64,000 bases of DNA from assembly GCF_022045235.1 (NCBI RefSeq), contig NW_027266268.1:39990001-40054000 (forward strand), read 5' to 3'. Under the pieces are notes generated by a model. It saw nothing but the letters and a program-made list of their open reading frames with translations, was not told the origin of the DNA and made no database searches. This document shows positions 28,564 to 55,396 of this stretch, piece by piece. Source of the stretch: Haliotis cracherodii. Taxonomy: Eukaryota. Made by a program: the position numbers and the translations under genes. The number at the start of each line of letters is the position of its first letter. Within the stretch, counting starts at the first letter, position 1.

Positions 28564-28569
28564 ATTCAT

Positions 28570-30047: not shown

Positions 30048-31129
30048 GCCGTCGGTCTGTAAATAATCGAGTTTGGACCAGACAATCCAGTGATTGACAT
30101 CATGACCCTCGATCCACGCAATTGGGATACGATGACATCCTGTTAGTCACCTCTTACGGCAAGCGTAGTAGCCTTTGATGGCTACCTATCTACCCAGGAT
30201 CTTCACTGGTCGCTATAATGGAAATTTTATGAAATGAGGCAATAGTTCTGGTATCTTATGAGCGAACGCTGGTAAGATATCAGAACAATTTACGAGTTGT
30301 TGTGTTCCCTTGCTTTCTCACCTCATACCCAAACTCGAATGTTGAGATACTTTTAGTTTCAGAATTACATCAATCTATTATAAGTATTATCACAACGTTC
30401 TTTTCATTCAAAGAAGTCGGAAGAATGGTAAGACTGAAATAGCATTGAGACTCACTTTTACGCATTTTAAATTGTCGGGGCATTGAAACCTGTAAGACAA
30501 ACCAAGTTTGCTCACCTGAATACCTGTCTTCATAACCAAAACATCTTTTACATATGGAACAAATAAAGTAAATAAACAGATACATCACCACACCGATAGT
30601 ATCTAAGACATCACTGTCCCTGAAATTCTGTAGTGCAGCTCTTTAATGTTATTTTTGTATCTCTAGTGGATATTTCGCGATTAAGACATGCGGTAAAGGT
30701 GGAACCAATTGTGGTCTCAACACATTTTTACTGAACATCCAGCTTGTTGAAGAAGCATTTTATTTTTTCAAACCTGTCAATGCCCCTGAATATTTCAGTC
30801 GGTCATACATTTTTCATAGCTATGTTGCCCTTTACGTCAAATAAAATCTGTGTATAGAAGGTGTCTTATATAGACTGGTTCTCTTGCATTTCTAACTAAT
30901 ATATCAGAACATCCAGCGTGTAGTTATATGTTTTCAAACATGTCAAAGTACCTTAACATATTAGTCCCTTCTGCATTGTACCTGATATTGATCCACACAT
31001 GGATGTGGGATTCGTAACCAGAGTCAAGCAATGTCAGCACCATGACCAAGGTCTAACAGGTCTAAATAACATTAGTGTTTGAAATTGGTGCATTTCGGCC
31101 TGTTAACAAAGTGAATCGTTGTGTTACAG

Positions 31130-31713
31130 GGTCAGAGTCTCCAGTGTACAATAAATCAGAACACAAGAATGTCAACCTCCATATTGCCACCATCTTGGGT
31201 GATCTGGCCTCAGTTCGACGCTTCTTGTCTGAGGATGGGGCGGACATTTCCAGCGGTTTCAGAAGGGGGTGGAATCGCAAATTATATGCAGTCCAGAAAA
31301 AAAATTGTTATATTGTCAATCATGGTTTTGAATTTTTGGAGTTTACTATCCTTCACTGGGCCTGTTACAGAGGATTTGTGAGGATCGCGAAGTATATCCT
31401 CTCTCAGGACAAAGTGGACATCAACAGTAGAGATAGGCGGGGGCAAACACCTGTGATGGTTGCAGCAAAGAAAGGACAAAGGGATGTGTTGAAATTAGTT
31501 GTTAGTAAAGGAGCAGATGTGTCACTTGTTGATAAGCGCGGAAACAACATCCTTCATGGCGCCTGTAGAGGAGGAGATGTGGAGACTGTGAAGTATATCC
31601 TTTCACGAGTCATGGAAGACCTTAATGTCAGAGACAGATATGGGCAGACTCCAGCTGATATTGCTAAATGGCATAAAAAGACGGAAATATTTAAGCTTCT
31701 CCAAGCAATGTAA
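31130..31713 (+). CDS. Ankyrin-repeat protein, probable terminal exon (about 4 ANK repeats), open frame
   Basis: TILHWACYRG, GQTPVMVAAKKG, GNNILHGACRGG, GQTPADIA; acceptor GTTACAG at 31129; upstream exons not identified. Confidence 0.88.
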
Positions 31714-31719
31714 ACATTT

Positions 31720-31900
31720 CCTCTCCATGTACTGTTGTGTGTCCATCAGTAGAATCAGTTCCATGTACTGTTAGCGTGCGTGCCGATCGGTAAAGCAGTT
31801 CAATGTACTGTTAGCATGTGTACCGATCAGTAGAATCATTTCCATGTACCAGTGGTCATGCGGCGTTACCGACATGTTTGTTTGCCGATCAGTAGAATTC
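31720..31900. repeat. About 40-bp minisatellite between the ankyrin exon and cassette
   Basis: Unit TCCATGTACTGTTAGCGTGTGTACCGATCAGTAGAATCAGT; same family as 42295-43256 and 51300-51585. Confidence 0.85.
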
Positions 31901-32250
31901 AGAGGATTTGTGAGGATCGCGAAGTGAATCCTCTCTCAGGACAAAATGGACATCATCAGTAGAGATAGGCTGGGGCAGACACCTGTGATGGTTGCAGCAA
32001 TGAAAGGACAAAGGGATGTGTTGAAATTAATTGTTAGTAAAGGAGCAGATGTGTCACTTGTTCATAACCACGGAAACAACATCCTTCACGCTGCCTGTAA
32101 AGGTGAGAAGTGGAGACCGTGAAGTATATCCTTTCACACGTCATGGAAGACGTTAATGTCAGAAACAGGTATGGGCAGACTCCAGCTGATGTGGCTGGAT
32201 ATCATGGAAAGATGAAAATCGATATCATAAAGCTTCTTCAAGCAATGTAA
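31901..32250 (+). pseudogene. Partial ankyrin cassette (tandem copy of the last repeats), with stop and frameshift
   Basis: RGFVRIAK*ILSQDK..GQTPVMVAAMKG..GNNILHAACKG, then a frameshift. Confidence 0.88.
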
Positions 32251-33625
32251 ACATTTCCTCTCTGATTTGGATTGTTATTTCTAATATCTACTATCAAGAT
32301 AAGGATGAGCATTCTGTTATGTGACAAAATCATGTAATTCATTAATACATAGGTATCCCAACATTTTAGGAATGTATATATGTGTTTATATAATGGAACA
32401 CTTTTGTTCGAAATGGTTCATGAAAATGTAACCAAGTATAATTTATTCTCTAAATAATGGCTGGGAATAATCCTGTAAAACTGCAAATGTAACAATTGCT
32501 GAATTGATATACAATAAAAGATGTGAATACATAGCGTCATGAAACTGGATTTATAAGTTATTCTCCTCAGGCGGCGGACCCTGTCCTTGTTTGAACACAA
32601 GTTTGTCTGACTTGGAACTGTTCAGCTACAACATGTACACGAAGAAAAATTATAAAAATAAAATATTATAAGTTATAAAACATTAATACATTCCTGATTA
32701 CAAGACCTGTAAAGAGCTGGGGTAGAATAGCTCTTCAGCAACCCATGCTTGCCGTAAAAGGCGACTGACGGGATCAGATGGTCAGGCTCGATGACTTGGT
32801 TGATACATGTCATCGATCCCAATTGCATAGGTGACCTGTGCAGGGCGTTGTGGGCCATGCGTGCGCATCCAAGATGACGACACTTCCGGTACCGGTGGCG
32901 TATACGACTCCAAGATGGCGACACGTCCTGTTCCGAGGGGCGATCTCCCCATCCAAGATGGCAGCACGGCACCTCAAAGATGGTGGGAGGAGAGGGGACG
33001 GGAAGGGTGGGGAAGGCGGTAAGGCGGTAGGGCGGAGGTATTTTGGGGTGGGGTGGGGGTTTAGTGGGTGGGTGGTGAAGAGGGTAGTAAAAGCAATGGA
33101 TAAAAGCGTTCTTTCGGGAGAGCTGGGTGGCCCTGAAAGGGGCCGTTTGATTCTGAAGAAGAAGAAGAAAACGTATGTGGCGCTGTCCGAGAAGCAACAT
33201 CAAAAAATGTTTGTTGGAAACAGGAAAGGAAACAGACTGAATCATCCATAACACCAGCAGCAACAGCAACAGCAGCAGCAGACGGGAAAACGGAAGTGAC
33301 AGAAAACCCCGGAGATGAAACCTGCAACACCTGTTACTTTGGACTCAGTGTTAGCTTCATTTACCTCTTCACCCACATTACTGCAGTGCTACACTTGCAG
33401 GGATGAATCGTTATCTTTCGTCTCACAGGACACTTGCTTGTGTGGCATAATCGCTTCATGTACGTGTCCTTCAGGACGGTGTTGCAATACAGGCACTGGA
33501 ATGTTCCATCACTTTCCTTCGTCCCAAGAGCATACACAGGCAGACAGCCTTGACACCTATCACATTGCCATGGAGGAGACGATAAATCAAAGAGAGCAGG
33601 CGTTCATCAGGCACTCATCGCCATC

Positions 33626-36600
33626 ATGACGAGCAAACAGAGTACACCGTACCGTTTGGAGAGGAAAGACACAACTCGTTCCAGGCGGTTAAGAACCGCT
33701 AACCATACTTATCCTTTGACATTCAACCCGGACTACTTGGAAACCCAACCACGGGACAACGTTCACATAGAACTACCCCTTTTAATTGACAGAGTGATCG
33801 ATAACTTCTATCAACAGATGTCCTGCCAGAAAGGGGATCATATTGGTCTAGGTATCGACCACTCCACTTTGAACATTCCCATACGGATTCCCTTTCATCG
33901 CTTTGAATATCGCCAGGGCCTAGATATCTTACATGCCGTGGAAAAAGTCCAGCAGTCCAACAAAGCCCTTAACATCGATGCCACCATGGTTGTGACTTTA
34001 GTACACGTAACAGATCCCGACAGGGTAGGATCAGGTGGCAATCAACTAAAAAACATGGTTGGATTTGAAGCATTTTTAAAATGCAAAAAGGTCATTATAC
34101 ATCAATCCTGATTGGTCAGGGCCTTATGGTGGCACATCATTATGCCCAGAAGCCCAACCCTCTGACCCAAGAATGGGAAAGCCAGAGAAAGAGACTGACG
34201 AGAACAGATCAAGTCGACGTTTAAGGCATACAGGCACATGACTTGTTTTGGCGCCTTGGCATTCCTGAAGGCCCCTGTCGGGGCCTGGACGACCTAGCGC
34301 ACGTGGGACGTGCCTTGATCCAAATCAACTATCAACTGAAAGTCTACAGTCAAGAGGTGGATCGGAGACTGATGTACAAGTGTGATGAGGCTCCACCCAA
34401 CGCCACCGTGCTGCATTTATTCCATCATGATCACCACTATGATGTGATCACTTCCATGCCAGCCTTTTATGCGTCTAACCATTACTGCGAACTCAGCGAC
34501 CAACGTTATGATCATCCCGAACTCCATCCCTGCACCATGCAATACCGCTACCACCGCTGCCTCCACTCCAGCTATTGCGCGCCCAAGGAAGAGCACAAGA
34601 TCCCTTGCTTGACATGTCAACGCTGGTTCCCAAATCAACACTGTTACACTCAACATCTCCAGTCACCATCAGAGGAAAAAACCCTGCGCCTGTCAATCGA
34701 TTTGCAGGTGCCCGACCTGTTTACAGCTTGTCCGTGTCTTGGAGACCCCCATGGCTCATCAGGAGTGCTCAGATGAAAGACATCCCTGCTTAGTGTGTTG
34801 AGAACCCATATCCCCAGACCATCGCTGTGTACGATGCATCGGTCAAGCGACAAAAGAGTTGTGCGAATACTGTCCATGGAGACAAGAAGGTTGCGGTCCC
34901 AGCCACGAGATAGTGTTTCGAGGTCTCAACACTCTACATGATGTGTGTGTCTGGTTGACGGCCTTGGCCGAAAAACCCAAGAAGAAGAAGAACCAAGAGG
35001 AGGAGGAGGAGGAGGGTGCATGCAAGGGGACAACGGCACGCCTAGGCAAAAAAAACCCCAACAGGATGGAACCCTCTCAAGCCATCCTACGACAAAACGT
35101 CAGCAACGTCCATCACACCAGGAGGAGGAGGAGGGGGATGCCATGGAGGTGGACGTGCCTACCCTGTTGGAGGAGGAGAAGGACACGAAAAAGACGAAGA
35201 AGAACACCACCGTCCAATCGCCCGAGAAGGAGGAGCTCATTCATGTGATGGCACATAAGGTGCGAGCTTATGACCTGCACTTGATCATGAAGGGCCTGTA
35301 CTCACATCTGGTGAAACTCCCCACCAAGATTTGGAATGGACTACCGATTTTACATGCAACCCTGGAACGATTGTGTTTTGGGGACAGTTTGAACTTCATA
35401 CCCTACCCGCTGAAAGCATTTCCAAAGACCTTTGGACTGAATGAACTGAAGAGAGGGTATTTTCCTACTTTTTAATACCAAAGCCAACCAGACCTACAGA
35501 GGTGCCTATCCACCAAACGTCATGTACGATCCCGATGGCATGTCTCCCGTGGAATGCACTGCCTTCCTCCAGTGGCATACCAAGAAAGTTCCAGAAGGAG
35601 TCTGTTTGACTTGCAAGAAAAACTCTTAGCCTAAAAACTATTCACATGCCTGTATGAACTGGTTAAGTTATCTCAGTTATCTGCACCTCCAGCACGCCAG
35701 GAATGGTGGTGAAAAGGAGTTCACGTGCCAAGAGGGTAAACATCATTACATTGTGGATGGCTACGATCCAGCGACAGGCACCATCTATGAATTACTGGGG
35801 TGTTTCTGGCATGGGTGTCAGAAATGTCACAAGACTGAACGTGGAAAACCTCATCCCGTCTTAGGCACGTCGATGGGAGCATGTTATACCGACACCCGCT
35901 ATCGCCTAAGTCTCTTGAACCAACACCATGATGTGAAATGTGTCGTGACCCTGTGGGAATGTCAGATAAAAAAATGCAACAGAAGGACTCCGCTTTGCGT
36001 GCTTTCTTGCAGGGACCCCACTGTTTCAACTTACCTAGTCTGCTAAACCCTCGTGACACCTTCTATTGAGGACAAACTAATGCCACTTGATTATGCTACA
36101 AAGCCCAAGAAGGTGAAACAATCAAGTAAATCGATATCTGTTCGCTTTATCTCTACATTTGCAAGACAGGTGCGTTTCCCACGGGACACCCGACACTTCT
36201 CCATCCTTCTCCGTCTGCGGGTACGTTTTTTGATCCGAAAGGACTTATCCAATCTCGTGTCCTACCCCCGAAACGACTCTCCGATACTGCCCTACAGATC
36301 AGGTGGAAAACTTCTCTGTCCTTTGTGCCTCACGTGTGCCAGTAGCCGGTCAGACCCACCCTGCGAGCACACGGACGAAGAGAGGTCTTGGGTGGGTACG
36401 TAGGCCACCGTAGAACTCCATGAAGCTGTGAAGAAGTATGGCTACAAAGTGCTTCAGATCTTCAACGTTTGGCATTTCGACACCTTTCCAAAGCATGACC
36501 CCGAGACCCAGCAAGAAGGAATCTTTGAACCCTATATCGACCGTAATTTCAAGGAGAAGCTCAAAGCCAGCAGATACCCCAAGGGATGTACAGATCACGG

Positions 36601-37545
36601 TGCTTACCTCCGGGAAATCTATGACAAAGAATGCAATTAGTTGGACAAGGACTGCATTGCCAAGAACCCAGGACGCCGCGCTTTTGCCAATCTCTTTCTT
36701 AATTCACTCTGGGGCAGGTTCGGACAGCGGTTAAACTATAGTCAGACCGTCTATATGAACGACCCTGCGCAGTACTTTGCCTTGTTGAGAGATGAGTCAG
36801 TGAATGAGTGAGTAGGGTGTAATGCCGCTTTTATCAGTATTTTAGTTATATTGCAGCCTGTCAGCTTAATGTCGGAGGAAAGACCGAAGTGATGCAGGTT
36901 TCAGACGTTTACCACTTCGGTGAAACCACCGAGCACGAATATGGTGCTGACCTAGAAACATAATCGGGGCGAACTGGGATTCGAACCCAACATAGGTTTC
37001 TGGCGTGCCCAAGGGATGCAACTCTGCACAGCGTATCGCAGCGCCTTAGACGACTGGGCCACCCGTGTCCCCTGTTGAGAGATGAACGAAATACCATCAA
37101 TGATATCACCGTCGTCAACGAACACATGGTGGAAGTGACCTACATCCGCAAGTGAGAATTCCAAACCACTCATTCTCATTTCAACGTCGCCGTAGCTGCT
37201 TGGGTCACCCACAAGCGCGCCTGGTGGATTGCAGGGCCATGTACTTCGACACCGTCAGCGTCATTTACATACATCGACCCCACGAAACGAATCCAGAGCT
37301 AGCCATTCATTGGGTGAGTTTACAGACGAACTGGACGGAAACACCAACAAGACGTTTGTGTCAGGAGATCCCCAAAACTATGTCTATGAGGTAATGAACC
37401 CCAGACCCGATGGAACGTGCACGACCTGCAAAGTGCAAAGGTTCACCTTGAATTACAGAAACCAACAACACCTCAACTTTGACACCATGGAAGGACTGAT
37501 ACTGGAACAACAGTCTGGGAAGGATGGGGAGAAAATCAGCTTGGA
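33626..37545 (+). pseudogene. Protein-primed family B DNA polymerase (Maverick/Polinton pPolB) pseudogene
   Basis: N-terminal VEKVQQSN region; Cys/His fingers; MAH..YD and DSLNFIPYPLKAFPKTFGL..KRGYFP; DGY..IYELLGCFWHGC; DICSLY; LNSLWGRFGQ; YFDT..LGEFTDEL; CKV..FTLN. Many frameshifts. Confidence 0.93.
36796..37072 (-). mobile_element. SINE family B inserted in pPolB, 13-bp TSD TGTTGAGAGATGA
   Basis: TSD at 36783-36795 and 37073-37085; same insertion site as 47348-47567. Confidence 0.9.
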
Positions 37546-39040
37546 GGCGGATGAAGTGATGTGCGACATGATACGTTCGAAGATGAGGAAACTGACTGAA
37601 CCCAAGAAAATAGAACCGAAGAAGAAGATAAAGAAGACCCAGAAGAAAATAACAAGCAAACCAGCAACAACAGCAGCAACCACAGCGGCAGCATACACAA
37701 CCATAACAGCACCAACCACAACAACAACAGCAGAAGACAGCGAAATGGAAGGGACAAACTTTTTCAAACCTGAAACACCTGAAAAAGGCGACCCAGGAAG
37801 AAGTTGTCTCTGAAGATTCCTCATCAAGAACAACTGTAAGTACCATGCTATTCTTTGGGATGTGTATAACGAATGCATGACGATGATCGTGGGAATACTT
37901 AAGGGTTCTTTTCTTGTTGGATTGACAGGACACTCATCCTTCCTTCCCTCAATGTCAGTTCAGCGCAGACCCTGTTGGAACAGTGGTGGGAACAAACCCC
38001 TCGGGAGCCAACCTTTTCACCTAATGTGCCTGTGATGATGACGATGATGACCATGAAGCGCTCAAACAGGCAGCCCTCCTTTCCATGGATCTCGACACAC
38101 CCTCCTTGCTTGATGCTTCTTGGTCACCATCATCACTGGATGATGTCTTTTCCTCAGGTTTGCCAATGGTCTGTGAAGACGAAAACGAGAACGATCCTTA
38201 TGGAGAAACTGTACCTGTTTTATTGATGGGCCCGTAACATGGTTGGGACCTGTTTGGGACAGTATGATGGAGGACCACATCTTATGGTGACCTCATCTTC
38301 ACTCGAAGAGCTTGAAGATTGAAGATGAAAGGTTTTCACGTTGTTGAAGGGACATGCAAAGCACTCCCTCCTCATTATTAAACAGTGATTGATTGAACTG
38401 ACTCTTTGTGTCTTGATTGATCTCAACTCCAATAGGGTGCACTTACAGTGGCCTGTAAACATATTCCTTTCAGTGAGTATAGACTCACTGCATATAAATA
38501 CTTCACTTACACTGCTGTGATAAGGTTATTTATCTCACACGGTGTATGACTAACTCCTCTTCGGTGATCGTCTAAACTGTAGGTTTGTAGATCTCTGTAC
38601 GAAAAGATAAATCTTACGTCTTTTGTGTTTTACCGTTTTGAAATCGCAGAAGACATTGTGAAAGTTCCTTTTATTTATAATCTCCAAGATGACTGTTCTG
38701 TTGTGAACACATGTTAAACATACGACTAGACACATAAGATGGTATTTTGTAACATTTATTGACCACAACATTGTGAAATTATGAACATACTTATTGTAAC
38801 TTTAATGAAACATCACGCTGCGGAAAAGGCACATGACTTTATGAATCACATTTAGTGACAGACAAACAACTGCATATAATTGAATTGTGAACATTATTTT
38901 GTGTAGTCTCCTTATGACGGAATGCCGTCCCCCGCTTCATCCAACGTGGAGTTGAATTTGCAGAAAATGAACACCATGTAAAACCACTAGGGCATACAAA
39001 AAAATGTTACTGAAAACAGCAATGTGACAATTACCTATCT

Positions 39041-39289
39041 ATGGTGATGACACTGCTTGCTGATGACACTACAATAATCAGCGCCACACCTGCAGGTCTA
39101 CAGGTGGCTCTGAACACTGTTATACAGTATGCTTATGACTGGAGATTAACTTACAATGCTACTAAAAGCCAAGCTGTTATATTCAGAAGATTGAATTCTC
39201 AACATAATCCCTTCAAATTTCAACTAGGTAGTGTTCCTATTAAAACATCAGATTGTATAACATATGGGGAAGTCATTCTAAACACTTAA
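39041..39289 (+). mobile_element. LINE reverse transcriptase fragment
   Basis: LLADDTTII..LQVALN..WRLTYNATKS. Confidence 0.75.
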
Positions 39290-39324
39290 TTGACATGTAA
39301 AAATATGATAGCGCGATGTTGTCA

Positions 39325-40160
39325 GAAGGCAAAGTATGTTGTGGCTTGGGTTGTCACGGATGTGGTCTGATAGAGCTGATTTTGAGTCATCTTTGGAGAC
39401 TGAGCTTTGATGTTCTTTAATTCGGGTTTTGAGGGGCCTGGATGTTTTTCCTATGTAAGCTTGTCCACAATTGCACGGAATGTGGTACACTGCTCCTGAT
39501 GGTTCTGGCTTGTGGCTGGATGGTGGTTTCCCTGTGGAACAGTTAGCCACAAAATCCAGAGACTCTTAAAGAAACAGGCCAATATTGATGTAGTCTTCAA
39601 AAGAAGTCAGACTATTCAGAACTCTATTAAAGCCACAGGGAAACCACCATCCAAAGAACATCAAAGCTCAGTCTCCAAAGATGACCACAACATCCAGTGG
39701 GAGAGAGTCACAACCCTCGCCACCAACCTCAAAGACTTCAAGATCAGGAAACTACAAGAAGCCATCAACATCAAAATACTTCAGCCCTTAATCAACCGTG
39801 ACCAAGGCTATTACATACCCCTGGCGTACCATCAACTCATCAAAGACCTCAATCAGCCATAATCCCGTTGTTTACATTACTGGCTTCATCCTTTGTATCA
39901 TGGCACTGACTTCACCCATGGTCATCATCACTGCCCTTGTGTGTACACAGCAGGCTTCGCTACTCCAGTATATCTACCCTACTGTATAAACATTGCCTCC
40001 TACGTGTATATATACTTGCTTACTGCACTCTGTAAATCACTTGCTTGATAACGGTGTTAGAACCTATACCGAAACGTCGCTCTTAATTGTAATAAAGAAG
40101 TTGTTCATCCATAAATTCTTATCCTTACTTAGTACTCCAACTTCTAAATGCCTATCAAAG
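39325..40160 (+). mobile_element. Penelope-like element 3' end with inverted GIY-YIG segment
   Basis: Minus strand GAVYHIPCNCGQAYIGKTSRPLKTRIKEH; plus strand RKLQEAINIK..LINRDQG; hammerhead-like motif and AATAAA downstream. Confidence 0.85.
40043..40080 (+). ncRNA. Minimal hammerhead-ribozyme-like motif in the Penelope terminal repeat
   Basis: CTTGATAA, stem CGGTGT/ATACCG, GAAAC, GTC; non-canonical core. Confidence 0.5.
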
Positions 40161-40255
40161 AAGAATCTGTTGTATGCAAATAGTGCTCGCTTGTGTACAT
40201 AGTAAATAACGAAAATATATGCGTGTGTGTATGTGTGTGTGTATATATATATATA

Positions 40256-41745
40256 CTAGCCACATAAAGAAATTATGCACGGAGAAAATATAGATATAAG
40301 GGCACACCGTCCACATATGAAATATAGGTTTGAACACAGCAATTATTGGAGACATTCAAACGCTCATGCACGTGCCATGCGATATGACGTCATTGATGTG
40401 GGCCTTTGGACGTGCAATGTGTTACTGCACTTGCATTCTGTGCAGCTGTACACAGCATGTGCAACTCAAAATTCGCTGTCACTTTGGAAAGCATTCAAAA
40501 ATTCAAATTCAAAGGCGCAGACACAAGGATATCACAAGCAAATCATGCAAAGATTGACAGCTGCACAGCGTCATGAAGCCATTGGAATGATCCGAGCGGG
40601 AATGAGGCAACAACAGGTGGCACCACATTTCCAATGCCATCGTAATACGATATCCGCATTGGTGAGGCGTTATCAGAACACAAATGACGTTGCCGACCAC
40701 CCACGTTCAGGACGTCCCCGAGTCACGACGCCAAGACTGGATTCGAGTTACACATCTCCGACACAGGTTCCAAACGGCGGTAACGACGTCCCAGACAATT
40801 CCTGGACTGCGCCGTATCCATCCCAACACTGTCAGGAATCGTTTACGTCAGTACGGGATTCGACCACGACGCCCTGCCATACGTCCCATCCTGACACACC
40901 GTCATCGCGTCAACCGTCTAACATGGTGTCGAAATCATGTTCGCCAACCTCGAATATGGTGGAGAAATGTTGTCTTTCTGGATGAATCGAGGTTCAACAT
41001 TTCCGACAGTGACGGGCGCCAACGTGTCTACCGGCGTTTGGGAGAACGTTATGCACGCAACTGTATTGTGGAGAGGAACCGTTTTGGAGGTGGCTCTGTG
41101 ATGATTTGGGGTGGGATAACAGCACGGCACCGAACCCCTTTGGTTGTTTTTCAGGGCAATCTCACCGGTGTTGGCTACAGAGATCAGATTCTGAGGCCTG
41201 TGGTCATTCCTTTCCTGCAACGTCATGGCCCGGGATTGACATTTCAACAGGACAACGCTCGTCCTCACACGGCTAGGGTCGCAATGGATTTCCTTCACTA
41301 TAACAATGTCATGTTACTGCCATGGCCTGCAGATTCTCCAGATCTCCCCAATAGAGCATGTGTGGGATGAAATGGAGCGCCGTCTGCGTCGTCTTCCACA
41401 TCCTCCAGCTAACGTCCGTGACTTGGCACAGGATTTGAGGAGGATATGGCAGGCCGTTCCCCAGGCCTTCCATGCCCATTTGGTGGACTCCATGCGTCGC
41501 CAATGCACTGCTGTGATTCACGCACAGGGTGGTCATACCCGTTATTGACTTTGTGACTTTGTCGTTTGACCCCTACTCCATTTTGATCTTCTGACGTCAT
41601 CGTAACAGATGTTGTTCAGGTCCCGTTGACATTTTCTAATGGTCCGATCATTCAGCTGCTACAGCGTCTGCATCATTTTGTTCTTGCTGTGTTGTATTTT
41701 AATCCAGAATATATTTTCTCCGTGCACAGTTTCTTTATGATTTAT
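40256..41745 (+). mobile_element. Near full-length Tc1 (DD34E) transposon; transposase 40545-41548 with two frameshifts
   Basis: TIRs CATAAAGAAATTATGCACGGAGAAAATATA and TATATTTTCTCCGTGCACAGTTTCTTTATG; TA flanks; FLDESRF, QQDNARPH..SPDLxPIE with 34 residues between D and E. Confidence 0.95.
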
Positions 41746-42294
41746 ATATATATGTATTTGTATTTTATGTGTTAATGATGCACCGATCTTTATAAATACT
41801 AGCACAATGCATTTGCTCTGAGAATATAAAAGATTTTGTAAATCTTTGGATATAACTTCTGGAAGAAATAAAGAAACTCATTTATTCATTCGTTCATTCA
41901 TTAATTCTACAACAGCTATGAATGTACAGAGCATACATTAGTGAAACAAGTCGTTGGCAATGTAAACCGAAACCGAATAGAATTCAATAGGAATATTTTA
42001 CCAGAAATATGTTTGATTATGTGTATCACACATTTTAATATAATTGGTTTGCTGTCTCAATGTACCAGTATCAGTATACACTCGGAGGATATAATATGAA
42101 ATAATCTTATTTAAAACCGTATGTTGAGGCAAAACGTATAGAAAGTAGTAACTTTACATATTCTCCAGTAGTTGGGACAGTTTTGGCTATTTGATAACCT
42201 CTTTCATTCTGATATTTTGACCTTGAGACGTTGACTACAAAGAGACAGAGTGTAAATGGAAAATTGCCGAGACTGTTAAATATTTTACACATAT

Positions 42295-43256
42295 TCTACT
42301 GATCGACACACACGCTAACAGTACATAGAACTGATTCTATCGATCGGCACACAAATATGTGGGTGACACCAACAAGCCAACATGGAATTGATTCTACTGA
42401 TCGACACACACGCTAACAGTACATAGAACTGATTCTATTGATCGGCACACAAATATGTGGGTGACACCAACAAGCCAACATGGAACTGATTCTACTTATC
42501 GACACACGCTAACAGAACATTGAACTGATTCTACTGATCGACACACGCCAACAGTACGTGGAACTGATTCTATCGATCGGCACACAAATATGTGGGTGAC
42601 ACCAACAAACCAACATGGAACTGATTCTACTGATCGACACACGCCAACAGTACGTGGATGTGATTCTATCGATCGGCACACAAATATGTGGGTGACACCA
42701 ACAAGCCAACATGGAACTGATTCTACTGATCGACACACACGCCAACAGTACGTGAAACTGATTCTATCGATCGGCACACAAATATGTGGGTGACACCAAC
42801 AAGCCAACAGTACATAGAACTGATTCTATCGATCGGCACACAAATATGTGGGTGACACCAACAAGCCAACATGGAACTGATTCTACTGATCGACACACGC
42901 TAACAGAACATTGAACTGATTCTACTGATCGGTACACACGCTAACAGTACATGTGGGCGACACCAACACGCCAACAGTACGTGGAGCTGATTCTACCGAC
43001 CGGCACACAAATATGTTGGTTACACCACCACGCCAACAGTACGTGGAACTGATTCTACCGACCGGCACCGGATATGTTGGTTACACCACCACGCCAACAG
43101 TACGTGGAACTGATTCTACCGACCGGCACACAAATATGTGGGTGACACCAACACGCCAACAGTACATGGAAATGATTCTACTGATCGGCACACAAATATG
43201 TTGGTTACACCAACATGCGTACGCCAACGGTACATTGAACTGATTCTTCTGATCGT
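42295..43256. repeat. Minisatellite array of about 40-bp and about 62-bp related units
   Basis: Recurrent GAACTGATTCTAC(T/C)GATCG(A/G)CACAC and AAATATGTGGGTGACACCAACA. Confidence 0.95.
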
Positions 43257-43793
43257 TACACACTATGCATTAGTGGAGGGCATCACCATGCTAGCAGTTA
43301 TAGAGAATGAGTATATAATCCAGTAACATGGTTACTGTTGGGTTATGTAGAAGTATATTGATCTTACTCAATCGTGCAGTACTCAACTGTTTCTGTGACA
43401 ATGCGATGCCAGGAATATAAAGAACTTTACAGAAAGAACAAATTGATAGCATATGTCATTTTTCTTATTCCTGTCGTCTTACGACATACTATGTCTAGCA
43501 AAGGATAAAAAAAGCCACCTCACAAACCTTCAAAATTGTCTTTGTAGATGTTAGTAGTTGGGTGCATGTCTCGAGGACCGCTCCTGGCTTCTGATTGGTC
43601 GGTTTCTGTGATGACGTCACATCCGGTTTCGGTTTGGTGACCTGGGCTAGGCATTGTTGGTCATGCGTGCGCATGCAAGATGGCGGCACGTCCGGTTCCG
43701 AGGGGCCATCTCCCCATCCAAGATGGCGGCACGGCGCCTCCAAGATGAAACACTGGAAAACTGGAAAAACAGTGGAGCATCATGTGCGATGCG

Positions 43794-44183
43794 TTAGTCA
43801 CTTTGCTCAGATGATCTATCTTCTTCACCCTCCACCTCCTCGGACTGATGACGTCGTCGTCGCTTTAAAGGGTGCTTTCTTGAGGGGCTTCTGTCCCGTT
43901 TTCTTTTGCCTAGAGGTGGTGTGACGCCCGCATGAAGTTGTGCAATACATTCTTTCAGGACACGGACCTCGATATGCATGGCTTCTATGAGGTGAAAAAC
44001 TTGTGTCACTTGTGTGGCCATGGACGGCGCTGTTGAAGCCTTCTTTCGACTGGGTTCTGGACAATCTGCAGCCAAATGACCCACGTCTTGGCAGTTGTAG
44101 CAAGGGCCCTGGGGAGTCTTTTGCTTATCTTTACTGCTTATCTTCGGACAGACATAGTGGCGGCGACCTTGAGTGTGGTACAT
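43794..44183 (-). CDS. Maverick-borne small CCHC zinc-knuckle protein (129 aa)
   Basis: CYNCQDVGHLAADC, an amphipathic helix, basic KRKR..KRRRR and an acidic tail; lies downstream of a TATA/CCAAT module. Confidence 0.6.
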   Translation of the reverse strand: MYHTQGRRHYVCPKISSKDKQKTPQGPCYNCQDVGHLAADCPEPSRKKASTAPSMATQVTQVFHLIEAMHIEVRVLKECIAQLHAGVTPPLGKRKRDRSPSRKHPLKRRRRHQSEEVEGEEDRSSEQSD

Positions 44184-44309
44184 GTCACTTAAGGGCAGTA
44201 CAGGTAACTGTGACTGTTGGTCTGACACTTCATACAGTTGTATCAAGACGACATGGTTGATCTCACCTTCAGTGTTAGGACTGTGACGGTGTGTGTGGTT
44301 TAGCTCTTG

Positions 44310-44560
44310 TTTTATAGGCGAGGCACTGACACCCTGCTTCCTGATTGTCCAAAACGCAGCGCACCGATTGGTCCGTTCCGGTGCCTGACCTGCACCTCGC
44401 TTTTCCAAAACGGACCAACTCTTGTGTTTCCTGTCCATAGGAAATGGATTTTACCATGGGAGCGAAAGCACCACCCTGGTTCGACCAATCAGAGCCCAGA
44501 ACGGTCCCAGCGAGCCCTCCACAACCGGTCCACAACCCAGGCTTCTGATTGGTCGGATGT
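44310..44560 (-). promoter_or_regulatory. CCAAT/TATA promoter module A
   Basis: CCAAT boxes followed by GTCAGTGCCTCGCCTATAAAACAAGAG on minus strand; inverted homolog of 49400-49630. Confidence 0.6.
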
Positions 44561-44686
44561 CAATCCTGTTTTTTATCCCTGGGGTGTGGATGCTGATCTC
44601 CCTATCCTAAAAAGACAACACAACACTTTTTTTGTTCAACTTTTTTAATTCGCCTGCTTTTCTGAAAGTCTCTACATCTCATTTGT

Positions 44687-45362
44687 TCAACACATACACG
44701 ATGGGCATCTCGGATCTTGAAACAGGCTGGCACGTACGCGATGGTCTTGCAATGTGGTGGGTTTCAAGTCCAAGAACAGGTAAGTGTAAGGCTCTCGGGT
44801 GGCGTCTTCATAGGCTTCACGCATAAAAAGAACTTTGCCTGGAAACACCTGGCGAGCCATACTGTCGATCTGCAATGCATTTCTGGGATTTTTATAGAGG
44901 TCCATGCAGTTAGCATTCAGACTGATGGCGCGGTGTTGCTGTGATTATGCAAACAAGTTCTGAGTGAGATACAGCACGTATTTGTTTCGGTGATGACTTT
45001 TCTTGGTGAACCATCACAGCACTTTCGTTTCTTCTTTCCTATCGTTGCCCACCAAATCATCGATGACGAGCCAATGCGGGGCCACCCCTTTTTCAGGCAA
45101 GGCACGATCCGCTTCTTTATGCTCTGCACAAAGTCAAGAGTGACCCCTAAGTGGTCTGCCATCTCTTCCAACTCATTATGAAGCGATTGCCATTCGCTGT
45201 ACACCCACACGATGCCATGGGGTGTTGGATTCAACACCTCGGGGCGATGCATCTGCTCCATACATGATTTTCCGCAATGAACATCGAAAAAGGATGACGT
45301 AGGGTCAAAGGGTAGGTAATGACCTCTTCATCATCATCATCATCATCACCACGTGACGCCAT
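44687..45362 (-). pseudogene. A32/FtsK-HerA-like genome packaging ATPase of Maverick/Polinton
   Basis: LRHPFSMFIA, partly deleted P-loop then GKS; WLVIDDL (Walker B); FTKKSHHRN..LTQNLF; ISLNAN..KNPRN..ARQVFP..AYEDAT..YLFLDL. Confidence 0.9.
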
Positions 45363-45609
45363 CCTGTGTTTGGGCTGACTGACACCCGGCAGCGGCGGTG
45401 GTGGTGGCGGCGGTGGCACTGGTCTCATAGGTGATGGTTTTAGTGATAAGCCATGGACGTGGTTTTTTTTATGACGAACTAAGGCATCTCTTCTAGAAAA
45501 TGTCTTCTAGAACACGATGTAGACTTAATGACGTCTTGCATGTCACTGATGATATGATAAGACTCTATTCTGTATTCTCTTGTATCTATTCTTTTCTTTA
45601 TTTTGTCTT

Positions 45610-48600
45610 TACTTTTACCCGGGTGGGTCGGGTCACAAGAGCATTTCCATGCTGAGGTCCTTTACGAATGATCTTATGAGGGTAATTCAAGCTGATTTTC
45701 TCCCCCTCCCTCCCAGACTGTTGTCCCAGTATCTTTGGTGTCAAAAGTAAGGTGTTGTTGTTTTCTGTAATTCAAGGTGAACCTTCGCACTTTGCAGATT
45801 GTGCGCGTTCCATCAGGTCTGGGGTTCGTTAACTCATAGCCATAGTTTTTGGGGCCTCCTGACACAAACGTCTTGATGGTGTTTCCGACAGGTTCGTCCC
45901 TAAACTCACCCAACGAATGGCCAAGTTCTGGATTCGTTTCGTGGGGTCGATGAATGTAAATGTCCGTGTCGAAGTACAAGGCATGTCACTGACGATAGGC
46001 TAAGACTCTATCCTGTGTTCTGGGTGACTGACACCAGGCAACTGATCTTTCAAGCATGGCCTTTCTCTTTTATCTATTCTTTACTTTATTTTTTCTTTAC
46101 TTTTACAACGAGCATGTGCACAGACATGACAGACAGACAGACAATGTAGACAACATTGGAGTTGAGATCAATCAAGACACAAAGAGTCAGTACAATCAAT
46201 CACTGTTTAATAATGAACAACAACAACCAGATACAAAGGCTTCTCCATAAGGATCGTTCTCGTTGTCGTCGTCACAGACCATTGGCATACGTGAGGAAAA
46301 GACATCATCCGGTGATGATGGTGACCAAGAAGCATCAAGCAAGGAGGGTGTGTCGAGATCCATGGAAAGGATGGCTGCCAGTTTGAGCACTTCATGATCA
46401 TCATCGTCACTGGTCGTCATCATCACAGGCACATTAGGCGAATAGGTTGACTCCCGAGGGGTTTGTTCCCACCACTGTTCCAACAGGGTCTGCGCTGAAC
46501 TGACATTGAGGGAAGGAAGGATGAGTGTCCTGTCAATCCAACAAGAAAAGAAACGTTAAGTATACCCACGATCATTGTCATGCATTCGTAATACTCATTA
46601 TCATCAGAACGGCATACACATCCCACAGAGTAGCAACGTACTTACAGTTATTCTTGTTGACGAATTTTACAGACAACTTCTTCATGGGTCGCCTTTTTGC
46701 AGGTGTTGCAGGTTTCAAATAGGTTGTCCCTTTCGTTTTGGTGTCTACTGCTGTTGTTGTTATGGTTAGTGCTGTTGTGGTTGTGTATGCTTCTGTTGTG
46801 GTTGCTGCTGTTGTGGCTGCTGCTGCTGTTGTTGTTGTTGCTGTTGCTGGTTTGCTTGTTATTTTCTTCTGGGTCTTCTTTATCTTTTTCTTCGGTGCCA
46901 CTTTCTTGGGTTCAGTCAGTTTCCTAATCTTCGAACGTATCATGTCGCACATCACTTCATCAGCCTCCAAGCTGATTTTCTCCCCATCCTTCCCAGACAG
47001 TTGTCCCAGTATCAGTCCTTTCATGGCGTGTGACTATAAACCATAACTCACTCACTCCTTTCATGGTGTCAAAGTTAAGGTGTTGTTGGTTTCTGTAATT
47101 CAAGGTGAACCTTCGCACTTTGCAGGTCGTGCACATACCATCGGGTCTGGGGTTCATTAACTCATAGCAATAGTTTTTGGGGTTTTGTACAGCTGGAGAC
47201 GCGCTTGTGGTGTGATCCAAGCAGCTATGGCAACGTTGAAATGAGAATGAGGGTTTTGGAATTCTCCCTTGCGGGTATAGGTCACTTCCCCCATGTGTTC
47301 GTTGATGACGGTGATACCATTGATGGTATTTCGTTCATCTCTCAACAGGGGGCACGGGTGGCCCAGTCGTCAAAGACGCCGTGATTTGCTGTGAAGAGTT
47401 GCATCCCTTGGGCACGCCAGAAACCTGTGATTGTGGGTTCGAATCCCGGTTCACCCTGGTTATGTTTCTAGGTCAGCACCATACCCATGCTTGTGTGTTT
47501 CACCAAAGTAGTAAACGTCTGAGACCTGCATCACTTCGGTCTTCCTCCCACATTAAGCTGACCCGCCTCTCAACAAGGCAAAGTACTGCGCAGGGTTGTT
47601 CATATAGACGGTCTGACTATAGTTTAACCGCTGTCCGAACCTGCCCCAGAGCGAATTAAGAAAGAGCTTGGCAATAGCGCGGTGTCCTGGGTTCTTCGCA
47701 ATGCAGTCCTTGTCCAACTAATTGCATTCTTTGTTATAGATCTCACGGATGTAAGCACCGTGATCTGTACATCCCTTGGGGTATCTGCTGGCTTCGAGCT
47801 TCTCCTTGAAATGACGGTCGATATAGGGGTCAAAGATTCCTTCTTGCTGGGTCTTGGGGTCCGATCATTCCAGGGTCGCATGTAAAATCTGGTGTCCATT
47901 CCGAATCTTGGTGGGGAGTTTCACAAGATATGTGTACAGGCCCTTCATGATTAAGTGCAGATCATAAGCTCGAGCGTTATGTGCCATCACATAAATGAGC
48001 TCCCCTTCTCGGGCGACTGGACGCTGGTGTTCTTCTTCTTCTTTGTCTTCTTCGTCTCCTTCTCCTCCTCAACCAGGGGAGACATGTCCACCTCCATGGC
48101 ATCCTCCCCCTTCCCCTCCTCCTCCTCCTGGTGTGATGGACGCCGCTGACGTTTTGTCGTAGGATGGCTTGAGAGGGTTCCGTCCTGTTTATTTTTGCCT
48201 AGGCGTGACGTTGTCCCCTTGCATGTACCACCCTCCTCCTCCTCTTGGTTCTTCTTCTTCTTCTTGGGATTTTGGCCAAGGCTGTCAACCAGACACACAC
48301 ATCGCGTAGCGTGGTGGGGCCTCGACACACTATCTCGCAGCTGGGACTGTAACCTTCTTGTCTCCATGGACAGTTTCCGCACAACTCTTTTGTCGCTTGA
48401 CTGATGCATCGTCCACATCCTAACTGCAACACGCACAAATTTGGGATGTGCTCCCCCGTCTCTTGCCTACATTCAATATCATAGAAGACGTATTTGACGT
48501 TGTCTTGTCGGATTTGGTTGTTGGATTACTCCTTTTCCCCCTCCTCCTCTTCATTGTGGGCTTCACCGAGGGCAGTCATGTAGCAGCGATGGTCTGGGAT

Positions 48601-48725
48601 CATGGGTTCTAGACACACTAAGCAGGGATGTCTTTCATCTGAGCACTCGTGATGAGCCATGTGCGTCTCCAAGACGTGGACAAGCGGTAAACAGGTCGGG
48701 CAACTGTGGATCGATTGACAGGCAC
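45610..48725 (-). pseudogene. Fragmented pPolB (right copy) with duplicated C-terminal block
   Basis: YVFYDIEC (ExoI); LFLNSLWGRFGQ; NVAIAAWIT; C-terminal block CKVRRFTLNYR present at both about 46960-47190 and 45610-45980. Confidence 0.88.
47348..47567 (+). mobile_element. SINE family B, same insertion site as 36796-37072
   Basis: Flanked by TCTCAACA at the same pPolB position; B box GGTTCGAATCCC. Confidence 0.88.
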
Positions 48726-48759
48726 AGAGTTTTAATATTTATAAACGTTTGTTGAAGAC

Positions 48760-49270
48760 ACACATGACACCACGTTTGCATGAAGACATGCGTGACAACA
48801 CATGGTAGCACACATCTAGACATACATGATTGCGAACTCCTCGGGGTAAATGAACGAGTGACAACGTCATGCATGTGTATCGATCTCTCTGTGTGTCCTT
48901 ATCCATCTAAATAGTATAAATAATAGTATTTATAAACGTATGTTTGAAGACACGCATGACACCACGTTTGAACGGAGACACGAGTAAAACACCACGTATG
49001 TTTATCGATCTCTCTCCATCCTTATCCATCTAAATAGTATAAATAATAGTATTTATAAACGTATGTTTGAAGACACGCCTGACACCACGTTTTGCATGGA
49101 CACACGTGTGACACCACTTTACATGGAGACACGAATGATAGCACGCATGTAGGCATACACCTGTGCCAACTCATCAGCATGTATGAGCGAGTGACAACGT
49201 CACGCATGTCTATCGATCTTTACTACTATAAACGTCTGATTTGTAGTCACGTGTGCCACCACGTTTTGCA
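48760..49270. repeat. Maverick internal minisatellite (ACACCACGTTTGCATGGA-type)
   Basis: Degenerate tandem units; also at 28780-28910 and 54400-54800. Confidence 0.8.
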
Positions 49271-49399
49271 AGCAGAAACGAAATACATCATGTAGGCATT
49301 CCTACATCACATCCATGTCTGTCCATGACGGTCAACCTTTAGAATTCCACAACATGATCAGGGTGACAGTGGACATTACTATCCAAAAACAGGATAAAA

Positions 49400-49630
49400 A
49401 AGGCTACCAATCAGAAGCTGGGGTTGTCATCCAATCAGAGGCCGCGTAGAAACCAGGGGTTGTGCTTTCTCTCCCATGGTAAAATCCATTTCCTATGGAA
49501 AAGAAACACAAGGGTCGGTCTGTTTTGGAAAACAAGGTGCAGGCCAAGCACCGGAACGGACCAATCTGCGCGCCGCGTGGCGGACCAATCAGGAAACAGG
49601 GTGTCAGTGCCTCTCCTATAAAACAAGAGT
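49400..49630 (+). promoter_or_regulatory. CCAAT/TATA promoter module B
   Basis: CCAATC at about 49407, 49431, 49561 and 49585; TATAAAA at 49617-49623. Confidence 0.6.
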
Positions 49631-49656
49631 GAAGCTCTCAAACTGCATTGTATGAG

Positions 49657-49699
<43 letters not shown>

Positions 49700-49725
49700 A
49701 GCAAAACAACGCAGAGAATAGGGAT

Positions 49726-49951
49726 ATGGAGTTGGTTTCGATTGAAAGGCTGCCGCTGTGCAAAGACACCCGTTGGGACATGGAACTCACTTCTACGAAG
49801 ACAGCACCATCACCATCATTGCCATCGTCTCCTCCATGGCAATGCGATAGGTGTCAAGGCTGTCTGCCTGTGTATGCTCATGGGACGAAGGAAAGTGATA
49901 ACGATGCATCCCTGCATGTGTAGCACCTCAGTAATGTGGGTGAAGAAGTAA
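49726..49951 (+). pseudogene. Unknown Cys-rich small protein gene (internal deletion here; missing part intact at 33361-33582 minus)
   Basis: Composite of the two arms gives one open frame of about 106 aa with 10 Cys. Confidence 0.6.
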
Positions 49952-50957
49952 ATGCAGCTACAACTGAGTCCAACGGTCAAAGAAAAAGGTTTTGCAGGTT
50001 TCATCTCCGGGTTTTTCTGTCACTTTTCCCGTCTGCTGCTGCTGTTGCTGTTGCTCCTGGTGTTGTGGATGATTCAGTCTGTTTCCGTTTCCTGTTTCCA
50101 ACAAGCTTTTCTTAATGTTGCTTCTTGGGCAGGGCCACAAAAGTTTTCTTCTTCTTCAAGATCAAACGGCCATCCAACTCTCCCGAAAGAACGCTTCCAT
50201 TGCTTTGACTACCCTCTCCACCACCAACCAAAACCCGCCCTACCGCCTTACAGCCTTCGCCACCTTTCCCACCCTCTCTCCTCCCACAATCTTGGAGATG
50301 CCGTGCTGCCATCTTGGATGGGAATATGGCCCCTCGGAACAGGACGTACCGCCACCTTAGGTGCGCACGCCACCGGAACCGGAAGTGCAGCCATCTTGGA
50401 GTCACTTGACCAAACCGAAACCGAAAGTGACGTCATCCTAGAAACTGACCAAGCAGAAGCCAGGAGCGGTCCTAGAGACATGCACCCAACCACTGATGTT
50501 TCTGTTCTGGTGGCTTTTGTAATTTGGCTTTTCACAGGTCTTGCAATCAGGAATTTACTAATGATTTACAACTTGCCATTCCATGTCAGCAAGTGTAATG
50601 CATTTCATTCAGGTGGGGTGATTCATACTATGTTTATTTTTTCTTTCTTTATACATTGTAGCTGAACAGTTCCAAGTCAGACAAACTTGTGTTCAAACAA
50701 GGACAGGCCAGGGTCCGCCGCCTGAGGAGAATAACTTATAAACCCAGTTTCATGACGCTATGCGCTATGTTTTCACATCTTTTATTATATATCAATTCAG
50801 GAATTATTATATTTGCAGTTTTACAGCATAATTCTGAGCCATTATTTAGAGAATAAATTATGCTAGGTTACATTTTCATCAACCATTTTGAACAAAAGTG
50901 TTCCGTTATATAAACACATTTACACATTCCTAAAATGGTGGGATACCTATATATTAA

Positions 50958-51305
50958 TTAAATGTTTACATTGCTTGAAGAAGCTTTAAGATTTCCATGA
51001 CAGCTAGCCACATCAGCTGGAGTCTGCCAATGCTTGTTTCTGACATTAAAGTCTTCCATGACGTGTGAAAGGATATACTTCACGGCCTCCACATCTCCTC
51101 CTTTACAGGCGGCGTGAAGGATGTTGTTACCGCGGTTATCAACAAGTGACACATCTGCTACTTTACTAACAACTAATTTCAACACATCCCTTTGTCCTTT
51201 CTTTGCTGCAACCATCACAGGTGTCTGCCCCAAGCTATTTCTACTGTTGATGTCCACTTTGTCCTGAGAGAGGATATACTTCTCGATCCTCACAAATCCT
51301 CTGTA
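50958..51305 (-). pseudogene. Partial ankyrin cassette (right arm)
   Basis: RGFVRIEKY..GQTPVMVAAKKG..GNNILHAACKGG; same junction to the minisatellite as 31901. Confidence 0.88.
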
Positions 51306-51602
51306 TTCTACTGATCGACACACATACATGTCAGTAATGCCACAATGCCACTAGTACATGGAAATGATTCTACTGATCGGTACACACGCTAACAGTACAT
51401 TGAACTGATTCTACTGATCAACACACAAATATGTGGGTGGCACCAACACGCCAACAGTAAATGGAACTGATTCTACTGATTGGTACACACGCTAACAGTA
51501 CATTGAACTAATTCTACTGATCGGTACACACGCTAACAGTACATTGAACTGATTCTACTGATCGACACACAACAGTACATGGAGAGGAAATGTTTACATT
51601 GC

Positions 51603-52178
51603 TTAAAGAAGTTTTAAGATTTCCGTCTTTTTATGCCATTTAGCCAAATCAGCTGGAGTCTGCCCAAGCATGTTTTTGACATTAAGGTCTTCCATGACGT
51701 GTGAAAGGATATACTTCACGGTCTCCACATCTCCTCCTTCACAGGCGGCGTGAAGGATGTTGTTACCGCGGCTATCAACAAGTGACACATCTGCTCCTTT
51801 ACTAACAACTAATTTCAACACATCCCTTTGTCCATTCTGTGCTGCAACCATCACAGGTGTCTGCCTCTTCCAATCTCTACTGTTGATGTCCACTTTATCC
51901 TGAGAGAGGATATACTTCGTGATCCTCACAAATCCTCTGTAACAGGCCCAGTGAAGGATAGTAAACTCCAAAAACACATTACCATGATCCACAATGAAAC
52001 AATGTTTTTTCTGGACTGCATATAATTTGCGATTCCACCCCCTTCTGAAACCGCTGGAAATGTCCGCCCCATCCTCAGACAAGAAGCGTCGAACTGAGGC
52101 CAGATCACCCAAGATGGTGGCAATATGGAGGTTGACGTTCTTGTGTTCTGATTTACTGTACACTGGAGACTCTGACCC
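51603..52178 (-). CDS. Ankyrin-repeat protein exon, right-arm paralog, open frame
   Basis: 197-aa ORF collinear with 31075-31713. Confidence 0.88.
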   Translation of the reverse strand, partial: GSESPVYSKSEHKNVNLHIATILGDLASVRRFLSEDGADISSGFRRGWNRKLYAVQKKHCFIVDHGNVFLEFTILHWACYRGFVRITKYILSQDKVDINSRDWKRQTPVMVAAQNGQRDVLKLVVSKGADVSLVDSRGNNILHAACEGGDVETVKYILSHVMEDLNVKNMLGQTPADLAKWHKKTEILKLL

Positions 52179-55010: not shown

Positions 55011-55117
55011 GAATTAATCTCTTTACATTCCTTCTGGATTCACAATCCTCCCCAGAAAAATGATCATCTCACTTCGTCTTTCGCAGATGAAGAATAGAAA
55101 TGGATGACCAGGCTTGA

Positions 55118-55283
55118 GTGAGTGAGTGAGTATGGTTTTACGCCGCTTTTAGCAATATTCCAGCAATATCACGGCGGGGGACACCACAAATGGGCTTCAC
55201 ACATTGTACCCATGTCGGGAATCGAACCCGGGTCTTCGGCGTGACGAGCGAACGCTTTAACCACTAGGCTACCCGACCGCCCC
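55118..55283 (-). mobile_element. SINE family A, 12-bp TSD GACCAGGCTTGA, right arm only
   Basis: TSD at 55106-55117 and 55284-55295; empty site at about 28465. Confidence 0.92.
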
Positions 55284-55396
55284 GACCAGGCTTGAAGATG
55301 ATCTCCTTCGGTATCATGCCCATCAACACAGTGCATCATGGTACATGCCACTGCTTCCGTCACCTCTTCATTGACTTCCACAAAGGCCTTGTGGAC

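Follow-up and report, generated by a model that had tools for sequence, protein, structure and literature searches.

A birth-and-death ankyrin gene cluster in Haliotis cracherodii with probable episodic selection on the binding face

An ankyrin (ANK) gene followed by a partial copy of its own variable part, with the whole arrangement repeated in inverted orientation nearby, raises the question of whether the partial copies serve as a store of variation for the genes or are simply by-products of duplication. Such a locus lies in a 64,000-nucleotide stretch of the Haliotis cracherodii genome (assembly GCF_022045235.1, contig NW_027266268.1, positions 39,990,001 to 40,054,000), which we refer to as the window and whose numbering is used unless contig positions are specified. 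An earlier interpretation made from the letters of the window without database searches (the sequence-only reading) saw a diversifying immune-type receptor locus in which two genes, L1 and R1, are fed by silent donor cassettes, L2 and R2. Our analysis supports a different account as the probable one: L1 and R1 are two of eight full-exon paralogs whose predicted binding faces have changed several-fold faster than the adjoining intron, likely through episodic positive selection toward different partners, and L2 and R2 are decaying partial copies that likely arose by a template switch at microhomology. Our verdict on the cluster as a whole is that it is a birth-and-death ankyrin gene family in a segmental duplication, with probable episodic positive selection; the locus is real but of a familiar kind, and the evidence does not support the more surprising reading of a molluscan receptor locus fed by cassettes, which seems highly improbable.

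Ankyrin exons in an inverted segmental duplication

All four homologous blocks that the sequence-only reading had placed in the window were re-located at near-identical coordinates, and they lie in the two arms of an inverted duplication:

31130..31713, plus strand: L1 terminal ANK exon, phase 1, 193 codons and a stop, with an N-terminal repeat carrying a long loop and then four more repeats
51603..52177, minus strand: R1 terminal ANK exon, 190 codons, with the strongest binding-face acceleration
31900..32250, plus strand: L2, a broken 3′ partial duplicate lying in the predicted 3′ untranslated region (UTR) of L1, with an in-frame TGA, a 1-nt deletion and a 6-nt insertion
50958..51303, minus strand: R2, a broken 3′ partial duplicate with an 8-nt deletion, in the predicted 3′ UTR of R1
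24099..38433, plus strand: left arm of the inverted segmental duplication
46155..64000, minus strand: right arm of the duplication, extending past the end of the window

While the four copies are real, they are an incomplete account of the family, as there are ten local copies of the ANK exon distributed over 444 kb: U1-U3 upstream, L1, L2, R2 and R1 in the window, D1 downstream, and F1 and F2 farther away. The cluster is composed of eight full exons, the two broken partials L2 and R2, and one relic, and thus contains the combination of intact paralogs and decayed copies in segmental duplications by which birth-and-death families are recognized. Of 29 informative sites, 20 place L and R as sisters, and the arms differ by 3.9-9.7% in substitutions across four shared blocks outside the ANK exon. 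Both the L1 and R1 exons begin at a splice acceptor in phase 1, and the repeat number is constant across the eight full exons; the R1 stop codon (TAA) lies three codons ahead of that of L1, an early stop that is common to D1.

These genes belong to a very large ANK family, with 3253 first-look candidates for Ank_2 genome-wide (150 scored); the next-closest paralogs outside the cluster are at most 78% identical (40 of 226 candidates scored). The best 14 of 36 protein matches are Haliotis ankyrin proteins; a search for an annotated full-length member of this subfamily found none.

Probable selection on the predicted binding face of L1 and R1

L1 and R1 both match the Pfam families Ank, Ank_2 and Ank_4 above the cut-off, both having the 33-residue helix-turn-helix repeats of ankyrin proteins. 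The predicted structure of L1 is an ankyrin stack (predicted local distance difference test, pLDDT, 90.4; predicted template modelling score, pTM, 0.87), and its top matches in the PDB are designed ankyrin proteins, with a fold like that of designed ankyrin repeat proteins (DARPins) and a template modelling score (TM-score) of ~0.75 over the query. The five series of binding-face motifs listed by the sequence-only reading for L1, R1, L2 and R2 were read exactly as it gave them and, when the variable residues are mapped on the predicted structure, they sit as proposed in the loops ahead of helix 1 and in helix 1 itself (helices 107-113, 140-147 and 174-180).

Binding positions were placed by repeat numbering and by the secondary structure of the predicted model, with two position sets that were both fixed independently of the cluster sequences. 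One set comprises positions 2, 3, 5, 13, 14 and 33, which we take to be the DARPin set. The other comprises positions 2, 3, 5, 10, 13 and 33, described as a continuous binding surface in the available text of PMC4308713. The same positions have the highest entropy in distant repeats (40 A-type and 47 B-type, loci L011-L030), so where the changes fall is a family-wide pattern and is unsurprising alone. The question is whether the positions change faster than a neutral rate, for which the adjoining intron provides a reference:

30150..31129, plus strand: neutral reference intron upstream of L1

The introns of U, L, R and D differ from one another by 5-9%. At the lineage intron rate 1.05 nonsynonymous changes are expected in the 39.8 binding sites of R1, where we find 12 (P 1.5e-9), with three replacements in the 183.7 non-binding sites; L1 has five binding-site changes against 1.54 expected (P 0.02), and the same per-lineage count gives one apiece for U1 and D1. 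The binding face has therefore changed at ~11-fold the intron rate in R1 and ~3-fold in L1. Counted by codon, R1 is changed at 9 of 17 hairpin or helix-1 codons under both position sets versus 3 of 82 elsewhere, and L1 at 5 or 7 of 17, depending on the set, versus 2-4 of 82; with the published set (PMC4308713) the four lineages R1, L1, U1 and D1 are changed at 9, 7, 1 and 0 of the 17, respectively. When the R1 changes are collapsed to five clusters or events the excess is retained, with P 0.0045.

Codon models were fitted to the six close genes, excluding F1, F2 and the cassettes. The M0 ratio of nonsynonymous to synonymous rates (dN/dS) is 0.77, M2a is preferred to M1a with p 0.0005-0.001, and a binding partition has dN/dS of 1.9-2.0 with p 0.03-0.05 (without doublet changes). 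With L1 and R1 as foreground in a branch partition, the binding class has dN/dS of 2.9-4.0 (p 0.0004-0.014), a result that holds when doublets are allowed (p 0.002-0.014), while the binding class of the background branches is at 0.6-1.1 and the rest of the exon at about 0.5-0.6. Elevation above 1 at ligand-facing sites on a conserved scaffold is thus found on the L1 and R1 branches and not on the others, and it is for these two lineages that the diversifying selection proposed by the sequence-only reading is supported.

The scaffold itself is under purifying selection. Non-triplet indels number 6-8 per pair in the intron and two in the cassettes, and there are none in the U, D, L and R exons; the absence of exon frameshifts against this intron background shows that the scaffold is maintained. 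Openness of the main exons had been contrasted previously with the decay of neighbouring genes, and while the exons are indeed free of frameshifts, the neighbours (a serpin copy and mobile-element fragments, partly within the predicted intron) provide no control for the ANK exon; the intron is the proper control.

Several observations weigh against selection as the explanation. The whole-exon dN/dS is below 1 (0.77), and allowing doublet changes removes the across-tree site signal (M2a p 0.23) and that of a 28-site binding partition (p 0.15), although an 18-site partition is retained at p 0.046. The changes are clustered, as they would also be after local hypermutation or a short conversion whose donor is not seen. 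Only four independent lineages enter the comparison, their tree is star-like, and tests of this kind can be inflated by recombination; with six copies the pairwise homoplasy index (PHI) has p 0.009 and 0.039, and with eight 0.028 and 0.31, leaving room for some mosaicism among the copies. Finally, a start codon for the gene was looked for and not found.

Some of these observations would fit relaxed constraint combined with clustered mutation, in which multi-nucleotide changes at tolerant positions inflate the rate without positive selection and R1 is possibly drifting. Models with doublets do fit far better (log-likelihood about -1235 vs -1251) as well as erasing the M2a signal, and M1a places ~44% of codons at dN/dS 1, but relaxation caps the rate at neutral and so does not account for binding faces that exceed the intron by the margins seen in R1 and L1, nor for a branch-partition test that survives doublets. 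Evidence against a hotspot tied to these sites comes from U1 and D1, where they show no excess, and from the cassettes, where they show little, and the early R1 stop, which might be taken as a sign of drift, costs three residues only and is present in D1. We regard this explanation as unlikely, and consider that the binding faces of L1 and especially of R1 were probably driven by selection, to judge from the rate comparisons. Speculatively, the likeliest driver would be recognition of a partner that itself changes quickly, for instance a protein of a pathogen.

Variability extends to the long loop that follows repeat 1 (31255-31330, codons 42-66), which has dN/dS ~1.7 (p 0.09-0.11) and contains codons 45 and 66, whose posteriors for positive selection are the highest. 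Parts of this loop are skipped by contigs of DNA-like sequencing runs.

Origin and fate of the partial copies

The partial copies are joined to the genes by a minisatellite, and the following features are pertinent to how they arose:

31724..31898, plus strand: ~40-bp minisatellite between the L1 stop and L2, meeting L2 through a short CAG microhomology
51305..51583, minus strand: ~40-bp minisatellite between the R1 stop and R2, the same repeat as in the left arm
42293..43263, minus strand: larger minisatellite array made of the same repeat, close to where the inverted duplication has its centre and without an attached ANK exon
32513..32518, plus strand: first AATAAA downstream of the L1 stop, past L2

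The minisatellite follows the stop codon in U1-U3, L1 and R1 and is found only in this cluster. L2 and R2 begin at the identical first base after it, in agreement with the single junction noted previously. The first AATAAA after both the L1 and the R1 stop is beyond the cassette, and each cassette is therefore part of a predicted 3′ UTR. There is one cassette for each of L1 and R1, and none behind five of the eight full exons; F2 is followed by a short degenerate partial copy that starts a few bases from the point at which L2 and R2 start.

The cassettes are decaying. Stops and frameshifts have built up in them at roughly the neutral rate, and their scaffold replacements number 8 and 6 over 183.7 sites, compared with 6.2 expected if neutral. 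Binding-site replacements number four in L2 (P 0.047) and three in R2 (P 0.15), most of them common to a gene.

Could the cassettes nonetheless have been maintained as donors, passing variable segments to L1 and R1 through gene conversion in the germline or the soma? The hints in favour are that L2 and R2 share one junction and yet derived bases are common to L1 and L2 (three, at codons 137, 169 and 170) and to R1 and R2 (two, at codons 113 and 135), that genes and cassettes are about 89-91% identical, and that F2 also has its post-stop copy; in addition, PHI is significant in three of four settings and there is a homoplasy excess of 11 steps (p 0.05 under the Hasegawa-Kishino-Yano model with gamma rates, HKY+G). 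The silent GGA/GGT site at codon 137 and the two bases in codons 169-170 on which within-arm conversion had been argued are indeed derived and common to L1 and L2. The third marker of that argument, ATCGCGAAG, is ancestral, being present in U1-3, D1, F1 and F2, and R1 and R2 have each changed a different base, so it provides no grouping by arm.

The remaining comparisons do not bear out conversion from cassette to gene. Of the derived bases polarised by outgroup, 13 of 16 in L1 and 14 of 16 in R1 are missing from the same-arm cassette, and both of those common to R1 and R2 are also found in L1 or L2. Across the 98 bases of the supposed tract L1 and L2 differ at 12 positions, more than the 8 that separate L2 from R2. 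In the four-copy block, where pairwise distances are 8.8-11.9%, two substitution sites do group by arm as had been noted, but two others group genes against cassettes and 68 of the 84 variable columns are singletons (three end-of-alignment or post-stop columns were set aside from the grouping counts). A run test of the GENECONV type finds no significant gene-cassette tract (four-copy global p at least 0.49), and the homoplasy excess has p 0.19 under HKY+I. The approximately unbiased (AU) test accepts all three quartets (0.81, 0.41 and 0.15). As most changes in the genes are missing from the cassettes, these cannot be the source of the diversification, and with one cassette per gene, most full exons lacking any, and decay at a neutral rate, the donor role proposed by the sequence-only reading is highly improbable.

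Silent-cassette systems typically keep their donors free of decay, and three marks of such a system (a many-donor array, variants traceable to donors, and decay-free donors) are missing at L1/L2 and R1/R2. Borrelia vls (PMC11499132) and lamprey VLR (PMC13428168) resemble this locus in having a full gene beside a ~90% identical partial copy of its variable part but, in the available text, have donor arrays and demonstrated one-way templated transfer, whereas here there is one decaying copy per gene, there are several recipients, and most changes are not in the copy.

The strongest tract recovered extends not between gene and cassette but across the arms, in the L1 and R1 5′ exons, with 13 consecutive identical polymorphic sites (global p <0.001); weaker tracts link U2 with D1 and U2 with R1 (p about 0.03). 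Codons 1-57 of L1 and R1 differ by one amino acid and two nucleotides, close to the roughly 60 codons reported previously, and there is one silent difference in 38.7 sites where ~2.5 would be expected by a hand-derived estimate. Coding tracts are confounded with purifying selection, and L and R are sisters; we have not accepted that the L1/R1 5′ identity requires conversion.

A further reading is that L1 and R1 hairpins received micro-conversions from distant ANK paralogs or unassembled copies, with selection possibly acting afterwards. The R1 changes fall in ~5 clusters, distant repeats often have W-K at positions 2-3 and N at position 14, some silent changes in L1 adjoin binding codons, and the L1/R1 tract fits exchange across arms. 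However, the exact pattern of the first R1 hairpin and its flank matches R1 alone in the genome, the candidates scored outside the cluster are the distant ones described above, and the tract is subject to the confounding just noted; we consider micro-conversion quite unlikely. Occasional old, incidental ectopic exchange is plausible among these copies, and a dedicated donor system is not indicated.

L2 and R2 are thus likely decaying leftovers rather than donor cassettes, and we infer an order of events that would account for them together with the selected faces of L1 and R1. A minisatellite would first have entered just past the stop codon, and replication or recombination would then have switched from it to a point midway through an ANK exon, depositing a 3′ half-copy in the 3′ UTR. 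Copies of the unit would have formed the U, L, R and D blocks (two in inverted orientation), after which L1 and R1 would have gained replacements at repeat positions 2, 3, 10, 13, 14 and 33 while the U and D faces stayed near-ancestral, with occasional ectopic exchange moving a few bases between copies as a by-product.

Two further copies have unusual 3′ ends. D1 (contig positions 40070683-40071314) has a U-like 5′ end, but its 3′ characters and its flank, which lacks the minisatellite, are shared by the cassettes; gene/cassette collapse may have produced it. The F2 relic (contig positions 40250904-40251070) starts at a GATTTG microhomology and its end resembles the F1 C-terminus, which suggests that the C-terminal half may have been replaced repeatedly. 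From the resemblance of the D1 3′ end to the cassettes and the older relic kept at F2 one might imagine a locus that shuffles natural DARPin-like immune binders in the germline or the soma, in which the 3′ UTR minisatellite and palindromic arms repeatedly swap the C-terminal binding half and U1-U3 add a choice of splicing behind shared micro-exons, but we regard this as very improbable.

Related systems, upstream exons and neighbouring elements

In the available text of PMC12627906, abalone ANK genes are enriched in segmentally duplicated chromosomes and a role in defence is suggested, citing earlier transcriptome work. The cluster shares with that expansion its alternating TPVM/NILH repeats, segmental duplications and proposed link to host defence, and differs in that this subfamily is short (five repeats), with a long loop after repeat 1 and a candidate repeated acidic micro-exon. 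That account, so far as its available text extends, gives domain enrichment and not site-level selection, and the defence proposal has to date come from domain counts and expression; the cluster offers a small, tractable case. Because the L1 and R1 faces have changed while those of U and D are near-ancestral, a comparison of ligands is directly testable. A literature search, with most subscription papers beyond its reach, found neither a study of this cluster nor one of selection at individual sites in Haliotis ankyrins.

Sea urchin Sp185/333 (PMC5103432) is similar in its clustered, similar genes, short tandem repeats at the edges of duplications and deletions, and germline instability. It is, however, a documented immune family with repertoires that vary between animals, and the available text has a section headed 'no pseudogenes', whereas partial copies here are broken. 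In fungal NLR repeat domains (PMC13449251, available text), too, diversifying selection acts on a few hypervariable positions of a repeat scaffold, and ectopic exchange is suspected; here no NTPase or effector domain was found, repeats within a gene are not near-identical, and repeat number is fixed. DARPins and designed ankyrin libraries (PMC4308713, available text) have the same fold and vary at the positions randomised in the libraries, but they are designed, whereas these are natural germline paralogs with a predicted binding face.

Upstream of the ANK exons is a repeated 51-nt element:

26521..26571, plus strand: candidate 51-nt phase-1 acidic micro-exon upstream of L1, with AG..GT ends and frame-compatible with the ANK exon
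61282..61332, minus strand: candidate micro-exon copy upstream of R1
61646..61696, minus strand: second candidate micro-exon copy upstream of R1

Between 1 and 18 copies of the element, each with a GT donor, precede each unit; its phase matches that of the ANK exon, and it is found only in this cluster. The AG is correctly placed in 27 of 37 copies, the acceptor being lost in about a quarter of them. In the phase-1 frame there are no stops in 37 copies and there is no silent excess (5 silent versus 29 replacement changes), while the alternative frame yields a hydrophobic, ATG-led peptide with two stops and is out of phase with the ANK exon. The peptide that the element may encode is Ser/Asp-rich, and further copies lie at contig positions 39964800-39968460, 40170100-40177100 and 40231900-40247400. 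At U1-U3 (contig positions 39974328-39982917) a single set of micro-exons is followed by three full ANK exons that are nearly identical and have separate acceptors; these could be alternative terminal exons.

A look for sequencing runs recorded as RNA that carry the ANK exon found none, which counts neither for nor against expression. Coverage of the candidate micro-exon was zero in four sequencing runs and is uninformative as to its use. A low-depth contig of 743 nt from run X1, ~92% alike, covers 31310-31758 and joins it to 32266-32544, skipping the cassette; we considered it as an L1 transcript and rejected it, as it is a U3-like paralog under another organism label and its origin as RNA is a guess.

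The surroundings contain the remains of several other elements. Fragments of a DNA polymerase region are present in both arms (32830-38430 and 45500-50500; Pfam DNA_pol_B_2, E 0.009, below the cut-off), which presumably resemble the polymerase region of Polinton/Maverick-type elements. Transposase remains near the palindrome centre (40260-41548) we take to be of the Tc1/mariner type, and a retroelement with an integrase domain in the right arm (55613-59318) to be Gypsy-like. A broken, intronless serpin copy lies inside the predicted ANK intron in each arm (27514-28593 and 59719-60547), and ~1.5-kb contigs from runs guessed to be RNA match it at ~90%, skipping an insertion at 28143-28360. Lastly, a CpG-rich, promoter-like stretch at 26027-26324, with a possible minus-strand first exon and contig cover in all four runs, may belong to a neighbouring gene duplicated in the left and right arms.

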